Below are positions 4,168 to 29,851 of a DNA stretch of 42,509 bases, in pieces. The notes below the pieces were generated by a model. The model searched no databases. It worked only from the letters and a program-made list of their open reading frames with translations, and was not told the origin of the DNA. Position numbers and translations under genes: made by a program. The stretch is from a virus: positions 1-42,509 of IMG/VR virus record IMGVR_UViG_3300018080_000053, one strand, 5' to 3'. Numbering within the stretch: position 1 is the stretch's first letter; the number at the start of each line of letters is the position of its first letter.

Positions 4168-6111
4168 TTAATATATCACTCCTGATTCATTGTTTCTCAC
4201 CGCGTTTGCAACTGATTTGCCCATTTCATCAGCGATCCGCTTTGCAAGATCCTGGGAGCTCTCACCGGGCAATTGAGTAATATTAAATTGGTTTCGAATA
4301 TCCGCCCGGGCCTGATTTGTTGCATTTGCCGTGTTGTTATTAAATACGCTGGGGGACGGTCCCGCCATAGCAGGATTTAACATTAATCCAGCGTCAAAGG
4401 GAGATGACCCCAACCCCCCGGGGGTTTGGCCTCCCGCGGGAGTATCATCAGAAAAAAGACCCCCAATGAGCGGGAGATCCTTGAGGACTCCTTTGATTGA
4501 CGGCAAAGCGGATCGGAATATATCAGCAAGTTTTCCGGGCAATGTCCCTAGAAAATCGAAAACCCCAACAACAAAATTTTTGATTGCCTCAACCGCAACA
4601 ATGATTGTATCAGACAATCCAGGGATATAATCATCGAGCATCAAGAAAAATTTTGCTGCTAGCTCAGCGAGAAACTCAAAAAGAGCGATCACGGGAGCAT
4701 ATACAAAAGAAACGGTTTCAATAATTCCTTGTATGATCCCCGCAATGAATGTCTTGAGATTTTCCCAAATGAGTTGCACTTTTTCAGAAAAACTCAATGT
4801 GTCATCAGTGATCACATTGTAAAAAATCTGAAATGTCTCTTTTAGGAAATTGAGAGCAGCGGGAATCCTCTCAGTAAAGAAAGAAACGAAATTCTCAAAC
4901 GCTTTGAGCATTGCAAGGTCAAACTCTTCTTTTGAGAGACCAAAGAGAGCAGCGATCAAACCGGTTATGTTTTCATGTATGAATTTTGAGATCGTGTCTC
5001 CCCATTTTCCTAAAAGGGAATCGCCTCCCTGAAAAAACACGATCAGATCCTCAACCGCAAGAGCAAGGACAACAAGTAACCCGGTCAGAATTCCCGCGGG
5101 AGTAACAAGGCCTAAAAGAGCCTTTTTCATCCCTGCAAAAGTTGCGAGTTTTTGCATCTTAATGATCAGCGAAAGGGCCTTGATGAATTTCGCAAATTTC
5201 ACCGCGCCGATCGCAATCGCAAGCAATTTGAAAGTATTTTTCAGACCTCCCAACCGATCAACAATGGGGGCAAGAATATCAAAGACATTTCTCAAAACTG
5301 ACAAAAGGAATTTGAGCACCGAAACAAAAGTGTCAACCCATTGCTTGACCCTAACTTGTATGAGTTCTTTATTTTGGATCACAAAATCAATGAATTCATC
5401 AACAAGAGGGGCGATCGCCTCTCCAACCAAACCGGAAAAGAGTTGAGTCAACGATTTGACGATCGTCATTAGCTGACCCCAAATCATATTGAATCTCTCA
5501 GCCCCCTCCCGAGCTTCCTCATTCAACAAATTGATCTCTTTGTATCGTTTCAGAATCTCATCAAGTGTTGTCCCTTGATCCCTGAGGAAACCTACAATCT
5601 TGTTTGCTTCCCCACTGAGCAACATGTCAACCGCTGCAACTGCCTTTTGCTGATCCTCCAACTTGAGAGCAGCGTCAATAATTTCCTGAAATTGCTTTTC
5701 AGGCTCAAGTTTTTGCAGGTCTTTAAATTCGAGATTGAGGATCTTGAGAGACTCCTCAACCGCGGTCATTTCCCCCAATCCCGCCATTTCACCAAATTTG
5801 TTATTCATCTCCTCAACGAGATCAACAACATTTTCAGCGTTGAGGCCTATGTTACTAACAACGCCTCCCAAAGCATCAAGAGCCTCAGCCGAAAGGCCAA
5901 CCGACTTGGCGAGATTTCCTAGCTCAGCGGTTTCTTTGTTTGTTTGGACAACAAGAGCGCTGATCGCTGCAGTCCCAGCAGCAATGAGACCGGTGACCCA
6001 TTTGAGGGTATTTCCCAGGTCATCAACCGTTTTGTTGAATTCCTCAACATCGGTTGAGTCAACCTCCCAACCCAGTAAAGCAACAAATTCCTCAATGACA
6101 GTCCGGGCCAT
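4168..6111 (-). CDS. Tail tape measure protein
   Basis: 647 aa, the longest structural ORF. It has a helical, low-complexity N-terminus, a long hydrophobic middle (LLAIAIGAVKFAKF..., GLLVVLALAV) and a Gly-rich C-terminus. It lies directly after the chaperone gene pair. GGAAGGA sits 9 nt upstream of the ATG. Confidence 0.85.
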   Translation of the reverse strand: MARTVIEEFVALLGWEVDSTDVEEFNKTVDDLGNTLKWVTGLIAAGTAAISALVVQTNKETAELGNLAKSVGLSAEALDALGGVVSNIGLNAENVVDLVEEMNNKFGEMAGLGEMTAVEESLKILNLEFKDLQKLEPEKQFQEIIDAALKLEDQQKAVAAVDMLLSGEANKIVGFLRDQGTTLDEILKRYKEINLLNEEAREGAERFNMIWGQLMTIVKSLTQLFSGLVGEAIAPLVDEFIDFVIQNKELIQVRVKQWVDTFVSVLKFLLSVLRNVFDILAPIVDRLGGLKNTFKLLAIAIGAVKFAKFIKALSLIIKMQKLATFAGMKKALLGLVTPAGILTGLLVVLALAVEDLIVFFQGGDSLLGKWGDTISKFIHENITGLIAALFGLSKEEFDLAMLKAFENFVSFFTERIPAALNFLKETFQIFYNVITDDTLSFSEKVQLIWENLKTFIAGIIQGIIETVSFVYAPVIALFEFLAELAAKFFLMLDDYIPGLSDTIIVAVEAIKNFVVGVFDFLGTLPGKLADIFRSALPSIKGVLKDLPLIGGLFSDDTPAGGQTPGGLGSSPFDAGLMLNPAMAGPSPSVFNNNTANATNQARADIRNQFNITQLPGESSQDLAKRIADEMGKSVANAVRNNESGVIY

Positions 6112-6368
6112 TATTGATCATCCTTCCAACGTCTATCAATCTCATTTTGCAAGAACATGAATTCTTGACGATCCAAAAAATCAATATTAGTCCAGTTGTC
6201 AACCTCCTCAGGGCTCACCTCATACCATTTTGCAACCTGCAGAGTCTCAACAATCTGAGCTCCTAAAGAGTGCTCAATGTCAGCTATGCTGACTCGGTCT
6301 GATCGTCCGGGATCAGATCGCCCCCTATAGCGGCAAGCCGATCCCGGACTTTCGAAAAAACCTTTGGG
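6111..6368 (-). CDS. Putative -1 frame extension of the tail assembly chaperone (GT-like fusion, from slippery CCCAAAG)
   Basis: The -1 frame is open from about 6410 to a TAA at 6113..6111 that overlaps the tape-measure ATG. It has no ATG/GTG/TTG start of its own for its first 69 codons. It encodes the protein-like sequence ...IADIEHSLGAQIVETLQVAKWYEVSPEEVDNWTNIDFLDRQEFMFLQNEIDRRWKDDQ. The heptamer C CCA AAG at 6368..6362 is in the zero-frame register X XXY YYZ. Confidence 0.5.
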   Translation of the reverse strand, partial: PKGFFESPGSACRYRGRSDPGRSDRVSIADIEHSLGAQIVETLQVAKWYEVSPEEVDNWTNIDFLDRQEFMFLQNEIDRRWKDDQ

Positions 6369-12721: not shown

Positions 12722-13855
12722 TTATTCACTCCTCTTGTTTCGGCTAGCAAGCATCTTTTTCCGAGACTCATCAACCTTGTTGACAAGATCCTCGTCAAGT
12801 CCCTTGAGGTCATCCCCCAAAACGGTACTCTCACCGGGGAGACTCTGGGACAGCGTATCAAAAACCGCCTCAACATACTCATCCGATCTGTTGGTAAGAT
12901 CAAACTCACCCGGTTTTGCTTTCTCGATCGCAGTCTTGCGGATCTCATGATCCTTGAGACCCTTGACCTCAATCTTAGGGGAAAGCGCCTTTGCCTTGTT
13001 GATGAGATCGATCCGATTCTCAACAAGAGCGTCAAGCGCTGTCACGTCAAGCGCTTTTGCCTTTTCAGCGTCAAGCTCACCGGTCAATTTTTCAACTGAC
13101 TTTTTTGAATCGGTGAGCTCAGAGGTCAACTTTTCGATCGTATCCTGGGAGCTCTTGACCTCGTTTTGCAACTTGTCAATTGCCTCCCCAGCCTGATCGG
13201 TGACCTCGATTGTGATCCCGTCAATCATTCTGGTTGCCATTTTTTCGATCTCCTTTTTTCCTTTATCGTTTTGAGAGTCGCTCAGCCTTATTTCCGGGCC
13301 AGCTCTCCCCGCTTTGACCAGCGCAATGTGATTGACCAAAATATTTGTCTGAATACCGTCATAAAAACCCAGCTCAGGATCCTCCCCGCTTTGCCAAACA
13401 ACATCAGTTGCGTAGCCTAAAGAAATCTGATTGACCCCCTCTTTTTCGATTTTTTCGATCGCATCTTTTACTTGGAAAAGCAGATCAACCGCGATCGTGT
13501 CGCCGTCCCGCTTGACGGTCTCACGGGAAAACCCAACTTGAAGATCCTTGACGTTTGCCGCGGTGACAGCCTCTGACGGGTGACCGTCAGTAATCGGCTT
13601 ATTCACAACGCTTGCAAGAGTCTCGTCAGAAAAAACCTCTTTTTCAGGCCTGAGCAACCTGACAATGTTTCCCGGTTTCTGCTCAATATGAGCGGGGATC
13701 TCCCCTTTTTCGAAATCAAGGACTGCATCATAGGCCTGGATCCCGGTCCGAGCAACTCTCGCAGGAGCTGACAAATATCCCTCCCGCGTTTTTTTCCGTT
13801 TTGATAAAGTGCTGAGATCATACAAGATCATGGGAAACAGGCTCCTTTTAATCAT
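12722..13855 (-). CDS. DUF2213-like prohead protease/scaffold protein
   Basis: 377 aa. The N-terminus KTREGYLSAPARVARTGIQAY is the DUF2213 pattern. The C-terminal half is a Glu/Lys-rich coiled coil, as in scaffolds. Confidence 0.6.
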   Translation of the reverse strand: MIKRSLFPMILYDLSTLSKRKKTREGYLSAPARVARTGIQAYDAVLDFEKGEIPAHIEQKPGNIVRLLRPEKEVFSDETLASVVNKPITDGHPSEAVTAANVKDLQVGFSRETVKRDGDTIAVDLLFQVKDAIEKIEKEGVNQISLGYATDVVWQSGEDPELGFYDGIQTNILVNHIALVKAGRAGPEIRLSDSQNDKGKKEIEKMATRMIDGITIEVTDQAGEAIDKLQNEVKSSQDTIEKLTSELTDSKKSVEKLTGELDAEKAKALDVTALDALVENRIDLINKAKALSPKIEVKGLKDHEIRKTAIEKAKPGEFDLTNRSDEYVEAVFDTLSQSLPGESTVLGDDLKGLDEDLVNKVDESRKKMLASRNKRSE

Positions 13856-13894
13856 TCTAGGTCCGGTTTTCGGTTTTTGTCAACTGAATAGAGA

Positions 13895-14785: not shown

Positions 14786-16170
14786 TGATCCTCATCCTCA
14801 GGAGTTTCCTCAGGCTCATCCTCAAGAGTTTCCTCAGGCTCATCAACGGGAAGCTGGGGAGGGGGCTCAACGGGCTCAATTTCTCCCTCAAGATCATCCC
14901 TCTCAATTGCCTCAAGAGTCTCAATCCACTCATCCGAAATAGGATAAACCCCGTCCTCTTTGAGCTGAGCGGTGACAATCGAACTAGTCACGTTACCCAT
15001 TTCAATATTATTCTTGTCCCGCTGAGAATTTTTGAGATCAATGTCAGCCTTTTCGGTGTCAGTCATTTGCCAAAGAGAATTAAACTCATATGACCAATCA
15101 TCGGGCATATATCCCAGCGTTGACCTAACCCATATCTGATCAAGATAATCAAGATGAGGACCGAATTTGTTGATCTGATTACTATTAACCATATCGTAAT
15201 ATTGCCGCGTTTGCTCTTGCCCAGTTGAGTTGAGGCCCGGAGCACTCTCCCCCAACAATCGAGTTGCCGGTATATCGGCTGCAGCCGCGGCAATATTGAG
15301 AAATCTGAGCATGAGATCCGAAAGTCCCGAAAATTGGAGTTGCTTTTGCTCAAAAGACTCCTCATCAGCGTCAATGAGTAACATGTTATTGAGGCTCTTG
15401 ATCGTGTCACCGTTGATGAAACGATTAATGATCGCGGTTTCTCCCCCGGGGGTTGAGAGCTGATGAAACAGTTTCTTGACTGCGATGACATCGATCTTGC
15501 TCTCATATACAAGGGAATTGACTGATTGAGCGGTTGAGGAGGCGTTGACAACCGCATCATATACCCTCTGAATAATCGATTGTCCCCAATATTGTTCACG
15601 TTGTTTCTCTCGCCACGGGAGAGGGAGTCCCTCAAAGTGCAAGACCCGCGAAAAATGGATCGCGTTTCTCCCTCCCTGCAGGAAATAGGCCTGAGGTTTC
15701 CTGAAATCGGGTTGACTTGGATCGGTTGTATTCACGACCCCCGGGATCAGATCGTGCCGATCAACAACTAGGAGATACTTGAGCGATCCCTTTTTGACTC
15801 GACTGAGATCTAAAGGCTCAGCCATCTCCCCAGCCCCGTCAACCCCGATTATAATCCCAGCTCCCCCGTACAATCGAGCCCAGCGCTCAACCTCTGAAAA
15901 TGAAGCCTTGATCTTGAAATCCTTTTCAGCGTTTTTCAAGTCGTCAAGTTGATCAGGAGACAATGAGGAGGCAGAAAACGATCGCCATTTTCTGACCATA
16001 TCATCAACGGTGACATCAATGATTTTTCCTGCTAACCAATCCTCTCGATAGATCGTGCTGAGCTCGTTTTCACCGAATTTCTTTGACTCAAATTGAGTAT
16101 AGGATCTCTTGTCTTTTGCGGTCCCCAGGTTGGCAACTAGGTTGACAAGCCCGTCAATTATTTTGCTCAT
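14782..16170 (-). CDS. Portal protein (DUF1073 type) with acidic repeat C-terminus
   Basis: 462 aa. It is followed by MuF and has the DUF1073-like N-terminus (LGTAKDKRSYTQF). The C-terminus is DEPEETLEDEPEETPEDEDQ. Confidence 0.8.
   Translation of the reverse strand: MSKIIDGLVNLVANLGTAKDKRSYTQFESKKFGENELSTIYREDWLAGKIIDVTVDDMVRKWRSFSASSLSPDQLDDLKNAEKDFKIKASFSEVERWARLYGGAGIIIGVDGAGEMAEPLDLSRVKKGSLKYLLVVDRHDLIPGVVNTTDPSQPDFRKPQAYFLQGGRNAIHFSRVLHFEGLPLPWREKQREQYWGQSIIQRVYDAVVNASSTAQSVNSLVYESKIDVIAVKKLFHQLSTPGGETAIINRFINGDTIKSLNNMLLIDADEESFEQKQLQFSGLSDLMLRFLNIAAAAADIPATRLLGESAPGLNSTGQEQTRQYYDMVNSNQINKFGPHLDYLDQIWVRSTLGYMPDDWSYEFNSLWQMTDTEKADIDLKNSQRDKNNIEMGNVTSSIVTAQLKEDGVYPISDEWIETLEAIERDDLEGEIEPVEPPPQLPVDEPEETLEDEPEETPEDEDQ
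14803..14844. repeat. 18-mer agtttcctcaggctcatc repeated with a 24-nt period (portal acidic tail)
   Basis: The copies are at 14803..14820 and 14827..14844. Confidence 0.85.
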
Positions 16171-16499
16171 TTTTTCCCTTTTCCCTCAATCATGTCAAAC
16201 ACGGGACCCACTATCATGGGTCCAAAAACGGGATAACCCCCTATACATTTCTTGATCTCGGCAACCTCAGTAACTGAAAACTCGGTTGCGATGTCAGCTC
16301 CCTTGATCTTGGTTGCGAGCTCATAGCGCTCATATTTCTCTTGCTCAGTCAATGAACACCCGGCTTGAGCGGTTGTCCCTTGCATCAATACTGCAGTCAT
16401 ACAAATTGTGCGAAGTGTAACCGGATCATCATTGTCAGGAGAGAGCTTGACCTTGCCTCCCAAAATCGTTTTGATTTCTTTGTCCCATGAAAAATGCAT
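16167..16499 (-). CDS. Hypothetical protein (accessory insert between terminase and portal)
   Basis: 110-aa ORF with an ATGA overlap to the portal start. No motif recognised. Confidence 0.55.
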   Translation of the reverse strand: MHFSWDKEIKTILGGKVKLSPDNDDPVTLRTICMTAVLMQGTTAQAGCSLTEQEKYERYELATKIKGADIATEFSVTEVAEIKKCIGGYPVFGPMIVGPVFDMIEGKGKK

Positions 16500-17186: not shown

Positions 17187-18086
17187 TTAGCCTACCATAA
17201 AGCGGCGGTTAACCCCCGCAACCGGTATTGTGACAAAGCCTAAATTTGTGATCGGAGAGGCTGTGTATGCAGCTCCCGCAAGATTAATATTGTTGACTCC
17301 ACCCAAGTTGAGGGTCCCGAAAAGAGATTCGATCACGCCAGCGGTCCCGGTATGAGTCATTTTAACACAGCGATTCGGGAGGGTAACCGGGTTTTGGCCA
17401 GAAAAAATATAAAAAGTAGGAGTGAGATCAACTCCCCTCCCGTGATCGGTGTTATATCGGGGGACTGACGTTAAGATCACGTTATTTCTCTCAGCGAACA
17501 TATGAAGCCCCTGAGTAACATTCTTGAACCCATAGAAACCCGCAGCGCTGATCCCCGTGAGATCCCAAAAAACAAAAAACAGATTAGGATCAATAACTGA
17601 GTTGCCTGTTAGCGTCAGATCTCCCAGTGTTGTTGCTCCCAACACATTAAGGGATCCGACTTGAGCAAGCCCCCCAACCTCAGCGATCCCGCTGATAAAA
17701 AAGTCTTGCTCACTGAGGCTGAGCAATGGGATCCCGGTCCCGACTCTCGAAAATCCTCCGATGTCAGGGACAAGGAAAATGTCACCCCCCGCGGTTGAGC
17801 GGATTGCTCCCCCTCCCTCAAGGGTAAAATCCCCCGGAGTTGAGGGATCTGCAAAAAAGGCCTCAGCAATCCCAATATGAGTATCGATCTCAGCGTGGGT
17901 CTTGACCCCAATGTCACTCAAGTTGAGGTGAGAGAGGGTCCCAATGAGCTTTGCAACGTCAACCTCGTCATATCCTCCCTCCTCATGAGACTCCGCATGA
18001 GGAGGAAAAGGAAAATCTTGCTCATTGCCCGGGAGGATCGTTTGACTCTCCCGTAATACCTGAACATGCTCTTTGATGTTGCTCAT
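17187..18086 (-). CDS. Hypothetical Gly-rich, fibre-like protein
   Basis: 299-aa ORF with an ATGA overlap to the terL stop. It has the motif LSHLNLSDIGVKTHAEIDTHI followed by Gly-rich, beta-like segments. Function not assignable. Confidence 0.55.
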   Translation of the reverse strand: MSNIKEHVQVLRESQTILPGNEQDFPFPPHAESHEEGGYDEVDVAKLIGTLSHLNLSDIGVKTHAEIDTHIGIAEAFFADPSTPGDFTLEGGGAIRSTAGGDIFLVPDIGGFSRVGTGIPLLSLSEQDFFISGIAEVGGLAQVGSLNVLGATTLGDLTLTGNSVIDPNLFFVFWDLTGISAAGFYGFKNVTQGLHMFAERNNVILTSVPRYNTDHGRGVDLTPTFYIFSGQNPVTLPNRCVKMTHTGTAGVIESLFGTLNLGGVNNINLAGAAYTASPITNLGFVTIPVAGVNRRFMVG

Positions 18087-19648
18087 CTTTTCCTCATTAG
18101 CTCTTTGTATCCTACAAAACTATCAGTGATTAACATCTCATGTATTGCGTCAAGAGTCGGGTCAATCTGATCATCGTGCTTGTGAGTCATGAGGGGAGTG
18201 AATTTCTCAAACTCATATAAATACTCATCTAACCAATAGGCTTGACGCGGCAAGACAACTTGACCTTGAGCAATTCGAGGCGATCCCGATTTGGCCCGGG
18301 AGACCTTGTCCTTATCCCGGGGAATTCCCTCAACGTATCCGTTGCCCCTCTGAGCGTTGATTGCTTGGATCAATCCAGTTCCCGAGCTCTTGTCCTCAAC
18401 TCGTCTTGACCGGGCTCCCATATGGTTTCTCTTGTGTTCAAATTCATGACGATCACAAAACTGCAGGAATTTCCTCTCAAGATCAGGGGCCTCCCATTTT
18501 CCCCGGACCTGATCAATGAGATAGATCCTTTGGTCTTGACCCATTGCCCAACACTGGAAAACGGAAAAGTCATTAACCTCTTTTGCTTTCATCGCGGTAT
18601 CCGCGTAAATCGCTTTATAAAGCACCGGGACCCGCTCACCGTCCTCAAGGACTATCACGTTTTCAACGGGCCAATACTCAGCGAAATAGTTGAACCATGA
18701 TCGCTTGAATATCGATCCCCCCTCGGGGGCTGGCCTTTGAAGATACTGAGAGGAATAAGTATATATATCTTTTTTGAGGACCTTTATGTCATCCTCATCA
18801 ATCTTGTATTTCCACAAAGGCCCGGATCGATACCGATACTTGACAGGGATTCCCGCGGTCCATTCCGCGGGATAATCGTCCCGATCACCGTCCTCAATCT
18901 CAACGGGCATTTCTAAATGATACCATTGATCCCCGGTCCCCCCGCTGAGACAAAATCCCGCGGGATCATTATCATGCAACCGTTGCATGATGAGGACGAT
19001 CGGAGTTTCTCTCTCAAGCGCAAGTCTGCTCTTTATCGTATTTGTGATCTTGCGGTTTGTCCGGTTGAGAATTGCGTCAGAAAAAACGTCCTCAGGTTTT
19101 ATCGGATCATCGATCACGATCCCCCCGCTGAAACCTGACTCCATTTGTCCCGCTCGAAACCCGGTCAACGTCCCTCCTGAGGGAGCAACTCTCATCCCTC
19201 CCCCAAACTCATTGAACCATAAATTGTTAGCCTTTCGATCTTGCCGAATTTCCATAGGCCATAATTGCTGGAATTCAGGAGAGGTCACAACCCGCTTGAT
19301 CTCACTTGAGTTGTTGAGAATCAGATCGTCTGAGCAACTTGTATGAATCCACTTTGACCGGGGGTTGATAGCAAAACCCCAGGCAATGAAAGCGATAACA
19401 GCAAGCTCAGTCTTTGTGAAACCGGGAGGGATATTGATGATCAATCGCTTGACCTCTCCCGCTGCAACTTTCATGAGTGTACGAGCAATGATCTTATGAT
19501 GCTTTGAAAGAATCGCTTTTTGTCCGGTCCTCACCTTGAAGAAATAGCGCCAAAACAAATAAAAATCTTGCTCAAGGCAATGCTTCAAAAGCCTCAATTC
19601 ATTTGGGGTCCAATCATGAATAAGCTCTTGAGTGCTAGAATTCTGCAA
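18083..19648 (-). CDS. terL: Terminase large subunit
   Basis: It has a Walker-A-like PPGFTKTE, a Walker B GGIVIDDPIKPED, and nuclease-domain motifs YADTAMKAKEVNDFSVFQCW and HDDQIDPTLDAIHEM. The tracked ORF start (19828) lies inside terS in a junk-like frame. I favour TTG 19648, preceded by GAGGAGA with 6-nt spacing. Confidence 0.85.
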   Translation of the reverse strand: MQNSSTQELIHDWTPNELRLLKHCLEQDFYLFWRYFFKVRTGQKAILSKHHKIIARTLMKVAAGEVKRLIINIPPGFTKTELAVIAFIAWGFAINPRSKWIHTSCSDDLILNNSSEIKRVVTSPEFQQLWPMEIRQDRKANNLWFNEFGGGMRVAPSGGTLTGFRAGQMESGFSGGIVIDDPIKPEDVFSDAILNRTNRKITNTIKSRLALERETPIVLIMQRLHDNDPAGFCLSGGTGDQWYHLEMPVEIEDGDRDDYPAEWTAGIPVKYRYRSGPLWKYKIDEDDIKVLKKDIYTYSSQYLQRPAPEGGSIFKRSWFNYFAEYWPVENVIVLEDGERVPVLYKAIYADTAMKAKEVNDFSVFQCWAMGQDQRIYLIDQVRGKWEAPDLERKFLQFCDRHEFEHKRNHMGARSRRVEDKSSGTGLIQAINAQRGNGYVEGIPRDKDKVSRAKSGSPRIAQGQVVLPRQAYWLDEYLYEFEKFTPLMTHKHDDQIDPTLDAIHEMLITDSFVGYKELMRKR

Positions 19649-20075
19649 GGAATGTCTCCTCAAAGCGCTCAATTTCCTCAACGGTGAGAGGCTCAGTGAC
19701 CGCGACACTCGCTGACAAGTGACCGGAAATCTCAACCGCTTTCCTTTTGGCGTAAAGGAAATCCATGAGCTTTGTTGCCGCTTGAAAAGAGACCTCAGCG
19801 GGGACAAAATCCCGCTTGAAACGATCATCAGAGGTTACGATCTCAACTATCTCAGCCCAATCCTCAGCGCTGGGCTCATCCTCATTGCGATTGCGCTTGA
19901 CTAGCTGGTAAAGGCGGGAAGTTTGCCCGGGCCTGGGATCTTGCCCGGACATGAGCTCAGCAAGAAACCTCCCAGGATCGGGGGCTCCTGATTCATCGCA
20001 AAACTTGCCCAATTCTTGAGCAAGATCCCATGATCGTTGACCTTTTGTCCTTTTTATACGCTTTCCCATAATCAA
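19635..20075 (-). CDS. Terminase small subunit (assignment by position)
   Basis: 146-aa ORF, the first gene of the late block, overlapping the terL start. It has a basic N-terminus (GKRIKRTKGQRSWD). The start is either TTG 20075 or ATG 20069. Confidence 0.55.
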   Translation of the reverse strand: MIMGKRIKRTKGQRSWDLAQELGKFCDESGAPDPGRFLAELMSGQDPRPGQTSRLYQLVKRNRNEDEPSAEDWAEIVEIVTSDDRFKRDFVPAEVSFQAATKLMDFLYAKRKAVEISGHLSASVAVTEPLTVEEIERFEETFLAEF

Positions 20076-20088
20076 GACCGTCTATACC

Positions 20089-20118
20089 ATTATTTAATGA
20101 GGACGTAGATCGAGTCAA
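20089..20118 (-). promoter_or_regulatory. Candidate late-operon promoter TTGACT-18-AATAAT
   Basis: On the minus strand: ttgact (20118..20113), an 18-nt spacer, then aataat (20094..20089). This would give a near-leaderless terS mRNA, and no SD is visible. Confidence 0.3.
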
Positions 20119-20154
20119 TAGGGAATATCTGAGGGGGTGAAATGGAAAAAACCG

Positions 20155-20192
20155 AAAAAAAACCCCGGGCAACTTACGAGGTCACCCGGGGG
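20155..20192 (-). terminator. Intrinsic terminator T2 (7-bp all-GC stem followed by T8)
   Basis: The minus strand reads CCCCCGGG-tgacctcgtaagttg-CCCGGGG-TTTTTTTT. Confidence 0.75.
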
Positions 20193-20311
20193 AAAACAAG
20201 GCAGTCACCGTGCACGGCAACTCCCGTTTTATTTCCACGGACACCCGGGGGCACCTGCTAAGTTTCCCCGGGGGTTGCGGATCGGATAGCAGGTGCTCTC
20301 ACCAATCCGCT
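20155..20311 (-). ncRNA. Candidate structured RNA 2 (about 157 nt), from promoter P2 to terminator T2
   Basis: Bounded by TTGACA-17-TATCGT and T2. It is GC-rich, has interleaved complementary blocks (see findings) and no credible ORF. Confidence 0.5.
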
Positions 20312-20318
20312 AAGGCCA

Positions 20319-20347
20319 ACGATACACGGACCCCCGGTCCCTGTCAA
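20319..20347 (-). promoter_or_regulatory. Promoter P2: TTGACA-17-TATCGT
   Basis: On the minus strand: ttgaca (20347..20342), a 17-nt spacer gggaccgggggtccgtg, then tatcgt (20324..20319). Confidence 0.6.
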
Positions 20348-20363
20348 CCGAAAAAAGCGAAAA
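20331..20363. repeat. 33-nt perfect direct repeat, copy 1 (carries the P2 -35 box)
   Basis: cccccggtccctgtcaaccgaaaaaagcgaaaa is identical to 20562..20594. The period is 231 bp. Confidence 0.9.
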
Positions 20364-20397
20364 AAAACCCCGGGGCTTTGCGCGATGCTCCCGGGGG
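20360..20397 (-). terminator. Intrinsic terminator T1 (7-bp all-GC stem followed by T8)
   Basis: The minus strand reads CCCCCGGG-agcatcgcgcaaag-CCCCGGGG-TTTTTTTT. Confidence 0.75.
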
Positions 20398-20542
20398 AAA
20401 ACGTATGAGACCCGCGATAAGCACTTACCGGCCCGATAAGGTAAAACGGTCTCGTTTTATTCATTGCGGGAATTACTCCGCTCAACTCATGGGAAACCTC
20501 CCGCGTTTCATATCCCGTCATTTTGCCCGGGTAGCATGAATC
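20360..20542 (-). ncRNA. Candidate structured RNA 1 (about 183 nt), from promoter P1 to terminator T1
   Basis: Bounded by TTGACA-17-TATCAT and T1. The only ORF through it (20258..20578) also runs through a terminator and the next promoter. Confidence 0.5.
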
Positions 20543-20549
20543 AAAAAGA

Positions 20550-20578
20550 ATGATAGGAGATCCCCCGGTCCCTGTCAA
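20550..20578 (-). promoter_or_regulatory. Promoter P1: TTGACA-17-TATCAT
   Basis: On the minus strand: ttgaca (20578..20573), a 17-nt spacer gggaccgggggatctcc, then tatcat (20555..20550). Confidence 0.65.
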
Positions 20579-20594
20579 CCGAAAAAAGCGAAAA
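20562..20594. repeat. 33-nt perfect direct repeat, copy 2 (carries the P1 -35 box)
   Basis: Identical to 20331..20363. Confidence 0.9.
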
Positions 20595-20639
20595 TCGCTC
20601 CCGTCCGGGCTCCCCCACTGACCCGCGGATCCGCGTTGC

Positions 20640-21320
20640 CTTATGCCCCCGCAGTCCCTCGAAAAAATAACCTGATTTTATCTAAATATTCAATCGCTCA
20701 CCCGATATTGACGACATGTGACCCTTTATCCCCAAATGTGCGATAAATGAATATTTATATTTTAGGCCTCGATACCGTTATAATAATTATTCTTTTTTTC
20801 TGCATAAGTCCGACAAAAAATCCGATTCATTTTATTTAAAATATACCTATTTTATTTATGCATTCATCGCACAATTGGCCACATAGGGTCACATGTGGGC
20901 AATATCGCTCACCCGATACGAAAACTTGACGCAATTCCCAAAAAATCAATTATTTTTATTTTGGCCTTTTCCTATACGTCTGACGATACCTAAGGCAAAT
21001 TGACCCCCACAAATAACACTAAATGATCCCTATTTATTTCCACTTCTCTTGAGACCGATCGGCCTATATAGATTTCCCATGAGCTATTTTGACCGTAAAA
21101 AACATGAATATTTAATTATCCTGATTTTCTCAAATCATAAAAAACAATATTAGTCCAACAGCGCGTTGAGGAAAAGTAGTCATAAATAAATATACATTTT
21201 TATTTTATTTATGCATAAAAATTTTCTCCAAAATAGTTCACCGCAGATCTATATAGGCAACTCGATCCCGAAAACCCCCGGAAAAAATGATCCGAATTTC
21301 CCAGGCCCAAAGGCAAAAAG
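20640..21320. other. AT-rich core with no ORF of 60 aa or more, inside the divergent control region
   Basis: The composition visibly drops to roughly 30 percent GC (by eye) against GC-rich flanks. No ORF of 60 aa or more lies entirely within it; the only tracked ORFs touching it (21211..21402+, 21238..21543-) overlap just its right edge and look spurious. It holds several internal repeats. Confidence 0.7.
20693..20918. mobile_element. MITE-like element: 196-bp body (20708..20903) with 42-46-bp imperfect terminal inverted repeats, flanked by a perfect 15-bp direct repeat
   Basis: The direct repeat atcgctcacccgata occurs at 20693..20707 and 20904..20918. The left arm is attgacgacatgtgaccctttatccccaaatgtgcgat..gaat. 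The reverse complement of the right arm (20862..20903) is attgcccacatgtgaccctatgtggccaattgtgcgatgaat. About 35 of 42 aligned positions match. No ORF inside. Confidence 0.35.
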
Positions 21321-21444
21321 GCCCGGTCCCAGCTCCCCCGCCCAACGGAAAAAGGACCTCACTGACCCGCGGTCTCGATCGAGCTCCTATTGTTATCATT
21401 GAATAGGAGGCCTCTGAGGCTCCCGCGGGGGTCTCACAAGATAC

Positions 21445-21473
21445 TTGACAGCCTCTCCCAAAGGAGTTATCTT
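21445..21473 (+). promoter_or_regulatory. Promoter TTGACA-17-TATCTT for a short plus-strand RNA
   Basis: ttgaca (21445..21450), a 17-nt spacer gcctctcccaaaggagt, then tatctt (21468..21473). Confidence 0.55.
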
Positions 21474-21479
21474 GCTCTC

Positions 21480-21550
21480 GCTTGAGATGGGGTTTCCTTC
21501 TGACCTCTGCCCGGGCTGACAACCTCCCAGTTGGCCCGGGCATTTTTTTT
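21480..21550 (+). ncRNA. Candidate sRNA of about 70 nt (two hairpins, the second being the terminator)
   Basis: It lies between the promoter at 21445 and the terminator at 21508..21550. The 5' hairpin is agatgg/ccttct. The terminator loop contains CCTCCC. The window holds only a 5-codon ATG ORF (atg ggg ttt cct tct tga at 21487). Confidence 0.45.
21508..21550 (+). terminator. Intrinsic terminator (9-bp stem tgcccgggc/gcccgggca followed by T8)
   Basis: Read directly: tgcccgggc-tgacaacctcccagttg-gcccgggca-tttttttt. Confidence 0.8.
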
Positions 21551-21560
21551 GAGAATTTTG

Positions 21561-21589
21561 TTGACTAACGCTTTTTTCGCTGATAGTCT
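21561..21589 (+). promoter_or_regulatory. Candidate early-operon promoter TTGACT-17-TAGTCT
   Basis: ttgact (21561..21566), a 17-nt spacer, then tagtct (21584..21589). It is the first promoter-like site upstream of the plus-strand block. Confidence 0.45.
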
Positions 21590-21596
21590 TGCTCAC

Positions 21597-21674
21597 TGTC
21601 ACCCGCTGTCCCCGGTCCCGTGCTAGATCCCCTCCCCCCGGACTAGCAACCGCAACCGGGTTCAGCGGGTGACA
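21597..21674 (+). promoter_or_regulatory. 78-nt interrupted hairpin in the early 5'UTR, ending 11 nt before the SD
   Basis: It stacks three stems: 12 bp tgtcacccgctg/cagcgggtgaca, 6 bp cccggt/accggg, and 6 bp tgctag/ctagca. The 16-nt loop is atcccctccccccgga. Confidence 0.6.
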
Positions 21675-21701
21675 ACTCACCGTCTGAGGGAGGAAAATCG
21701 A

Positions 21702-29822: not shown

Positions 29823-29851
29823 TTGACAGCCCCCTTGAGCGGATCTATTAT
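29823..29851 (+). promoter_or_regulatory. Internal promoter TTGACA-17-TATTAT
   Basis: ttgaca (29823..29828), a 17-nt spacer gcccccttgagcggatc, then tattat (29846..29851), in a 100-nt intergenic gap. Confidence 0.6.

Follow-up and report, generated by a model that had tools for sequence, protein, structure and literature searches.

In phage lambda, the late genes are preceded by a strong sigma-70 promoter (PR'), a short RNA of ~150-200 nucleotides (nt) (6S RNA), and an intrinsic terminator (tR'). In units of the lambda Q type, the Q gene normally lies just upstream of the promoter, a sigma-dependent promoter-proximal pause element is conserved, and no promoter separates the terminator from the late genes. 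In phage HK022, antitermination acts in cis through put, a conserved two-stem RNA element of ~70 nt. We analyzed a locus of similar layout in a 42,509-nt stretch of viral DNA (IMG/VR record IMGVR_UViG_3300018080_000053, positions 1 to 42,509; hereafter the window) that represents an essentially complete ~42.5-kb phage genome. On its minus strand, two head-to-tail units, each with a promoter, a short predicted RNA, and a strong terminator, lie upstream of terS, the putative small terminase gene at the head of the late operon. The two units are real and non-random, and they share with lambda the strong promoter, the short RNA, and the intrinsic terminator upstream of late genes.

The Hfq module of small RNAs (sRNAs) consists of a hairpin and then a U-rich stretch that immediately precedes the terminator hairpin. 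Hfq-binding sRNA genes are reported typically to carry at least seven terminal T (PMC5558911), the term "Hfq-binding module" is used in PMC4509938, and phage-encoded sRNAs and anti-sRNAs are known (PMC4104026). In Stx phages, transcription from a constitutive phage late promoter ends after a short distance, and the resulting terminated PR' RNA, StxS, itself works as a trans-acting sRNA (PMC7547250); together with prophage sRNAs (PMC4104026), StxS is closest in kind to the units described here. An earlier note, made from the letters of the window alone, had offered free-standing phage sRNAs as one of several options. This is the option that we favor, tentatively and with slightly less than even confidence: the units would be free-standing, modular, accessory phage sRNA genes, and their strong terminators would insulate the late promoter.

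Anatomy of the two units

Both units open with the same exact 33-nt block, a repeat that the earlier note had reported and that direct reading and a repeat finder both recover; it extends to 46 nt at 87% identity (repeat family D3). The two predicted promoters, in which TTGACA is followed 17 nt downstream by TATCAT in unit 1 and by TATCGT in unit 2, were likewise borne out, with matches of 11/12 and 10/12. The score counts the hexamer positions, of 12, that agree with the sigma-70 consensus, so that both are near-consensus promoters. Our own scan of both strands gave 12 promoter-like sites of at least 10/12 in the 42.5-kb window, the unit 1 promoter among them. In the first copy of the block, the 11-mer CGCTTTTTTCG occupies 20590..20580, centered at about -42.

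Each unit is complete with its own promoter and terminator, and both end in a G:C hairpin followed by T8, as had been described. Terminators with a G:C stem and T8 number only three in the window by our own scan, all of them in the control region (-20367, -20162, and +21543), and they bound such short units, which supports the reading of the units as sRNA genes. The T8 of unit 1 doubles as the distal T-tract of the unit 2 promoter. If transcription starts near 20542 and 20311, RNA lengths of ~182 and ~157 nt would result, as the earlier note had stated, and the overall anatomy that it drew (promoter, RNA of ~160-180 nt, strong terminator, twice over and aimed at terS) is correct. The distance from the end of the last U-tract to the terS ATG is 85 nt, where the earlier note had given ~80 nt.

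Patches common to both units, AATAAAACG and GTTTTCCCCCGGG, are present as claimed (direct reading; repeat family D17). The proposal of an old duplication with conserved pieces holds for the promoter block, but the bodies are different modules: outside the terminator, the similarity between units 1 and 2 is not significant (local alignment, z 2.3). The units had also been called rich in CCCGGG. This palindromic hexamer is locally dense, with seven copies within 20164-20531, but its ~6-fold over-representation holds across the whole genome (53 copies in the window versus 8.8 expected from dinucleotide-preserving shuffles). Because the hexamer is enriched genome-wide, its presence in the units is not by itself special. 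Coordinates of all features are collected in Table 1.

Table 1 Features of the control region and its borders (positions in the window; -, minus strand; +, plus strand; SD, Shine-Dalgarno sequence)
Feature	Position	Strand	Details
33-nt exact block, copy 1	20562..20594	-	T4-CGC-T6-CGG, -35 TTGACA, and first 11 nt (GGGACCGGGGG) of the G+C-rich spacer
33-nt exact block, copy 2	20331..20363	-	11-mer CGCTTTTTTCG at 20359..20349
Unit 1 promoter	20578..20550	-	TTGACA-17-TATCAT; -35 at 20578..20573, -10 at 20555..20550; 11/12
Unit 2 promoter	20347..20319	-	TTGACA-17-TATCGT; 10/12
Unit 1 terminator	20397..20360	-	Hairpin CCCCCGGG...CCCCGGGG (20397..20368) and T8 (20367..20360)
Unit 2 terminator	20191..20155	-	11-pair hairpin, 8/11 G:C (20191..20163), and T8 (20162..20155)
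Predicted unit 1 RNA	20542..20360	-	~182 nt; 5' half ~90% identical to the single unit of L002 (z 23)
Predicted unit 2 RNA	20311..20155	-	~157 nt; very stable predicted fold; no SD-AUG
Module A (5' module of unit 1)	20502..20482	-	SD GGGAGG (20502..20497), 6 nt, AUG (20490..20488), AGU, UGA (20484..20482)
T-block	20144..20162	-	T8-CGG-T6-CC; doubles as unit 2 terminator tail; conserved element
Predicted terS-proximal promoter	20118..20089	-	TTGACT-18-AATAAT; 10/12; downstream of both terminators, 20 nt before terS
First late gene, putative terS	19635..20069	-	144 amino acids; identity by position only; ATG at 20069; overlaps terL start
Mirror-image unit	21445..21550	+	TTGACA-17-TATCTT (21445-21473), ~75 nt, GCCCGGGC/GCCCGGGC hairpin with loop CAACCUCCC, T8 (21543-21550)
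Predicted early-operon promoter	21561..21589	+	TTGACT-17-TAGTCT; 10 nt after mirror-unit T8; conserved in L002 and L093; first early gene from 21702

Unit number and module content vary among relatives

Relatives were sought by terL and terS protein searches in IMG/VR, GTDB genomes, JGI metagenomes, and a set of 5.8 billion proteins. The lineage proved rare: the 5.8 billion proteins contained six terS clusters. In addition, blastn against the INPHARED phage genomes gave no match, and exact and degenerate DNA patterns retrieved a single contig from IMG/VR, which belongs to the same phage population. Three full control regions could be compared, namely those of the window (also L086 and L089), of L002/L106 (terS 89%), and of L093 (terS 80%), along with two more distant ones, L003/L094 and L095 (terS ~60%).

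The number of units differs among these phages: two in the window, L086, and L089, one in L002 and L093, and none in L003 and L095. The L002 unit is ~90% identical to unit 1 over the promoter (TTGACT-17-TATCAT in L002) and the first ~80 transcribed nt, and its 3' half is unrelated. Unit 1 and the L093 unit have in common one block, AAACGC.GGAGGTTTCC.ATG, which is module A (z 4.9), and nothing else. Module B, the 3' module of unit 2, comprises GAAAUAAAACG, a CCGUGCACGG hairpin, and GUUUUCCC, and matches the 3' half of the L093 unit through the shared block GAAA.AAAACG..CCGTGCACGG..GTTTTCCC (z 8.7). The four variants can be written as A+B' (unit 1), A'+B (unit 2), A+B (L093), and A+B'' (L002). 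From this arrangement, the identical 33-nt T-block/promoter is the likely recombination joint.

Cassette exchange is also seen between nearly identical genomes. From 20169 downstream, L090 and the window are 99.9% identical, but upstream of that point L090 has an L002-type cassette. Units that are accessory and exchangeable in this way (two, one, or none, and the L090 swap), with modules that recombine, support the view that they are sRNA genes. The same polymorphism could mark a dispensable or selfish recombining cassette, exchanged at T-block boundaries, or the units could be cis-acting leaders or attenuators with a translation-sensing mini-open reading frame (mini-ORF), in either case with no function in trans. 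The length of ~160-180 nt and the succession of SD, short ORF, and terminator do recall attenuator leaders. However, near-consensus promoters and perfect terminators are kept in every variant, which argues against a dispensable cassette. Against an attenuator, the mini-ORF is short (2-5 codons) and distant from the terminator (~90 nt upstream), it is absent from unit 2, and an alternative antiterminator pairing is not conserved in L093. We regard these explanations as distinctly improbable.

Several assemblies break inside the cassette, either at a cassette-variant junction or at the 33-nt repeat, as a strain bubble would produce, and strain bubbles or the repeat explain the breaks. Independent assemblies of the same phage measure 42.2-42.5 kb and differ in their break points. 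Contig ends were considered as evidence for pac or cos sites and rejected as uninformative on the termini, because the breaks coincide with the variant junction or the 33-nt repeat. One contig, L001/L002 (IMGVR_UViG_3300029258_002369, 44418 bp), carries terS-terL at both ends, with 100% and 89% amino acid identity to the window; this arrangement suggests that two co-occurring strain variants were joined in closing a circular genome, and not that there is a true terminal repeat.

A predicted promoter between the units and terS

The earlier note held that polymerase from the unit promoters could reach the late block only by reading through one or both terminators. This view is undermined by a predicted TTGACT-18-AATAAT promoter that follows the last terminator and is conserved in all relatives. 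In a three-lineage alignment, conservation within the control region is highest over the T-block, this promoter, and the short terS leader, and in the window, L002, and L093 alike, exactly 25 nt separate the T-block from the terS-proximal -35 downstream of it. Relatives that have no units keep the promoter, as TTGACA-17-AATAAT in L003 and TTGACA-17-TATAAT in L095, and L003 also has a similar T-block. We examined ~90 loci with terL relatives: dozens of those with ~50% identity carry TTTACA-17-TATATT or TATAGT directly upstream of terS, and a promoter-terminator pair upstream of terS was found in none outside the close clade. Because this conserved predicted promoter lies downstream of the last terminator, also in unit-less relatives, read-through from the units would not be needed for the late genes; the late operon appears to have its own conserved promoter and would not need the units as its leader. 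terS itself has no SD, unlike other genes of this phage, and with a leader at 20070-20088 its mRNA leader would be very short.

These findings bear on a late-gene antitermination switch, in which polymerase from the unit promoters would be made terminator-resistant by a Q-like protein or a put-like nascent RNA and read-through would give most late transcription. The layout is like that of lambda: a promoter that looks strong and constitutive is followed by a short RNA and a strong terminator, and the late genes come directly after. In addition, conservation between the window and L002 reaches the level of coding DNA across the unit promoter, its G+C-rich spacer, and the first ~60 transcribed nt, and ~20 early ORFs without recognizable function could hide an antitermination factor. 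Yet the conserved near-consensus promoter after the last terminator, present also in unit-less relatives, disfavors such a switch, as do further promoter-like sites in sense inside the late operon (16169-16198, 13854-13883, and 6110-6139, all on the minus strand). A unit number of zero to two and a cassette that is exchanged between 99.9%-identical genomes argue in the same direction; in lambda terms, the units here are doubled, single, or absent in close relatives, and the lysis genes lie in another operon.

No gene lies within 1.6 kb upstream, where lambda-type units would normally have Q, and neither Q, N, or sigma nor any other regulator family was found among ~46 ORFs using Pfam and PHROGs, in agreement with the earlier note, which had recognized no Q-like gene; three PDB sequence searches for an antiterminator likewise found nothing. 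The first early gene was considered as a Q-like, regulator, or zinc-finger candidate and rejected: it is an orphan with one homologue, in which Cys68 of the CxxC motif is replaced by Tyr. A -10-like pause element is not conserved in the initially transcribed region. By reading of the first ~10 transcribed nt, the hexamer is GATCAT in L002 and ATTCAT in unit 1, where it arises after a 1-nt insertion with loss of the key A2, and none is present in unit 2 or L093. As with put, a structured RNA lies just downstream of a phage promoter and upstream of terminators, but the promoter-proximal hairpin here differs between U1/L002, U2, and L093, and the units are dispensable in relatives. The 5' hairpin of the unit is not conserved in L093, and the promoter-proximal hairpins of the four variants differ in sequence and shape, giving no consensus fold. 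A Q- or put-like switch is possible but disfavored, and we consider it improbable.

A further near-consensus sigma-70-type promoter stands in sense at 29823-29851 (+). Three of the four extra sense promoters are at or near gene boundaries; the one at 16198 falls shortly before the portal start, within the preceding ORF. The distribution of these predicted sites suggests that several internal promoters of the phage are served by host polymerase.

The predicted RNAs share a 3' plan and a conserved start signal

Although the hairpin sequences vary, all four unit variants end according to one plan: an A-rich stretch (AAUAAAACG or AAAAAACG), a hairpin, GUUUU, a G:C terminator hairpin, and U7-8. Some features of Hfq-type sRNA genes are found here, with an own promoter and a Rho-independent terminator with at least seven T in both units and a hairpin followed by GUUUU before the terminator stem in 4/4 variants. 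Hfq-dependent sRNAs (PMC5558911, PMC4509938, PMC4104026) resemble the units in having their own promoter, a length of 50-250 nt, and the succession of hairpin, U-rich stretch, terminator, and at least seven U, as well as an A-rich (ARN-like) stretch and fast sequence turnover with retained architecture. They differ in that unit 1 contains an SD-AUG mini-ORF and that the genes here are in tandem with an identical 33-nt promoter block.

Module A carries this mini-ORF. The arrangement of SD, 6 nt, and AUG recurs in L002 (AUG GUU GAG UAA) and L093 (AUG CAA CCG GCC AGU UAA), giving mini-ORFs of two (MS*, unit 1), three (MVE*, L002), and five (MQPAS*, L093) codons, and the codons are not conserved. 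The putative ribosome-binding site (RBS) is typical of the phage, since GGGAGG-N8-ATG is found at the first early gene and at the Lar-like gene. The mini-ORF lies ~90 nt upstream of the terminator. As in lambda bar and other minigenes of 2-8 codons (PMC2490762), a phage transcript carries a strong SD and an AUG that is soon followed by a stop, here after 2-5 codons; points of difference are that the codons vary and that the SD is partly paired, in each predicted fold, with sequence directly 3' of the mini-ORF. Because of this pairing, translation of the mini-ORF stays a prediction.

Several results weigh against sRNA genes. The earlier note had called both RNAs structured, which is true of unit 2 (minimum free energy -78.2 kcal/mol, z -5.03 versus dinucleotide shuffles) but not of unit 1, whose RNA folds no better than shuffled sequence (z -0.30). 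A conserved SD-AUG is atypical for a base-pairing sRNA. Rfam 15 gave no match at the gathering threshold over the whole window, and in E-value mode on 19900-21300 no family was found; the best sub-threshold match, anti-hemB (25.6 bits versus a threshold of 49.5), aligns mainly through hairpins, the terminator stem, and the U-tail. The RNAalifold consensus of three aligned units, of the four variants that exist, is weak (-9.85 kcal/mol), and because the variants are few and their modules non-homologous, this alignment is unreliable and has no statistical covariation support. Finally, the longest complementarity of the unit RNAs to the phage's own sense transcripts is 10-12 nt, the chance level, and duplex energies with these transcripts show no outlier. 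Pairing of unit GGGAGGUU with the plus-strand RNA loop AACCUCCC was also tried (8 nt in the window, 7 nt in L093, and 6 nt in L002) and is not claimed, because it shows no covariation.

A mirrored layout on the early side

The units lie in a 1.63-kb divergent control region that separates the late (-) and early (+) operons. At its early side, a mirror-image unit on the plus strand is followed by the predicted early-operon promoter. L002 and L093 both retain the anti-SD-like loop of the mirror-unit hairpin, CAACCUCCC, although L093 has a different stem and lacks the U-tract. The inner promoters flank an 870-bp AT-rich core that contains two large imperfect inverted repeats, at 20703-20753/20857-20907 (51-nt arms, 103 nt apart) and 21053-21091/21229-21267 (39-nt arms, 137 nt apart). 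The arms in relatives are quite different in sequence and measure 91 and 88 nt in L002, 60 and 54 nt in L093, 84 nt in L095, and 63 nt in L003. As relatives keep repeats despite different arms, selection for the repeat itself (as an origin, operators, or a long hairpin RNA) is pointed to. An exact 16-mer, ATGCATAAATAAAATA (minus strand), occurs once per inverted-repeat spacer (20848-20863 and 21201-21216) and also at L093:2033-2048, where the surrounding AT-rich DNA cannot be aligned; a promoter and a binding site are both conceivable.

The 11-mer CGCTTTTTTCG occurs solely in the control regions of the three close phages, each of which has three to four exact copies, in both orientations. At the unit promoters it adjoins the -35, and at the early promoter it recurs in the spacer (21569-21579, +). 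From this placement it looks like a putative operator for a regulator or a DNA-bending element.

T7-type phages have tandem strong early or origin-activating promoters, and in SPP1 pacL a bent T/A-tract region overlaps terS promoters. The locus here likewise has tandem strong host-type promoters at a control region and phased T-tracts upstream of terS; it differs in that each promoter is closed by its own terminator. A role at the DNA level, with the RNAs as by-products, could take three forms. Outward promoters (20578, -; 21445, +) could drive negative supercoiling and opening of the AT-rich core, possibly an origin; released polymerase could be delivered to the adjacent operon promoters; or the phased T-tract blocks could be binding sites for terS (pac) or a regulator. 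Consistent with such a role are the mirror-image unit, the AT-rich core with inverted repeats whose arms differ in relatives, the control-region-only 11-mer in both orientations, the exact 25-nt distance from T-block to terS promoter in three lineages, and the position of the next promoter's -35 within 10-36 nt of a T8 terminator in 3/3 cases. However, the unit bodies keep RNA-type features (the SD-AUG, and the hairpin, GUUUU, and terminator despite sequence replacement) that a pure DNA role would not need, and relatives with inverted repeats and the terS promoter manage without units. The contig ends in the cassette, explained as above, are not necessarily physical ends. We rank these DNA-level readings (origin activation, polymerase hand-over, regulator network) second and think them unlikely.

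The mirrored layout also allows a combined scheme, which we give the lowest probability of all. It would be a relay of promoter, short RNA, terminator, and promoter in both directions, in which host polymerase is loaded at the strong inner promoters and T8 releases it 10-36 nt before the operon promoters (hand-over or local supercoiling). The RNAs released on the two sides would bear signals complementary to each other, an SD-AUG minigene on the late and the CAACCUCCC anti-SD-like loop on the early side, that tune translation or titrate ribosomes, and cassette swapping would change timing or immunity specificity between co-circulating strains.

Genomic context

The late operon runs on the minus strand from 20069 down to 1 and then from 42496 to 39623, and contains packaging and virion genes: terL, portal, Mu-F, cement, major capsid, and tail (Pfam/PHROGs). 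terL (18083-19828, -) matches PHROG 38 (E 2.5e-98), while the first late gene, the putative terS, has no family match in Pfam or PHROGs. The early operon runs on the plus strand from 21702 to ~39600 and encodes Lar-like, amidase, primase, DUF2800 nuclease, Enc34-type SSB, PolA, VRR-NUC, and SNF2 proteins. On the identical ENA contig, 20070-21701 contains no called protein gene. A protein-coding reading of the units was rejected, as no gene is called there and the long ORF across the units is disrupted by indels in L002. Scans for tRNA, tmRNA, and tandem repeats gave nothing relevant. As to the host, a 42-kb relative is binned with a KSB1 metagenome-assembled genome, and distant terL relatives occur in Desulfovibrio and Planctomycetaceae contigs.

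Discussion

Comparison of close relatives leads us to favor, at the strength given at the outset, accessory sRNA cassettes. Host sigma-70 RNA polymerase would initiate at each promoter, near-consensus and preceded by a T-tract, and make RNAs of ~182 nt from unit 1 and ~157 nt from unit 2. It would be released at the strong intrinsic terminator, and the T8 tail of unit 1 would also serve as the upstream T-tract of the next promoter. The predicted 3' ends resemble those of chaperone-dependent bacterial sRNAs, and the unit 1 RNA would in addition present an RBS-like site with a 2-codon mini-ORF. We infer that the RNAs accumulate and have targets; most likely they would work in trans, affecting translation or RNA of the host or the phage. 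The terminators would stop heavy unit transcription from crossing the terS promoter. The cassette, modular and variable in copy number, sits between the AT-rich inverted-repeat core and what we predict to be the late operon's own promoter.

A layout like PR', 6S, and tR' beside terminase genes does not alone imply Q-type antitermination; this caution follows from the comparative data, which show that the late operon keeps its own predicted promoter. Three features make the locus of interest: the polymorphic cassette, the minigene, and the mirrored layout. Genomes that are otherwise 99.9% identical differ in copy number and module content, a pattern typical of diversifying selection (immunity, anti-defense, or host takeover). 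If the RNAs are made, the locus would be a compact example, from an uncultivated phage lineage, of phage sRNAs carried as exchangeable cassettes at the hub between early and late genes.

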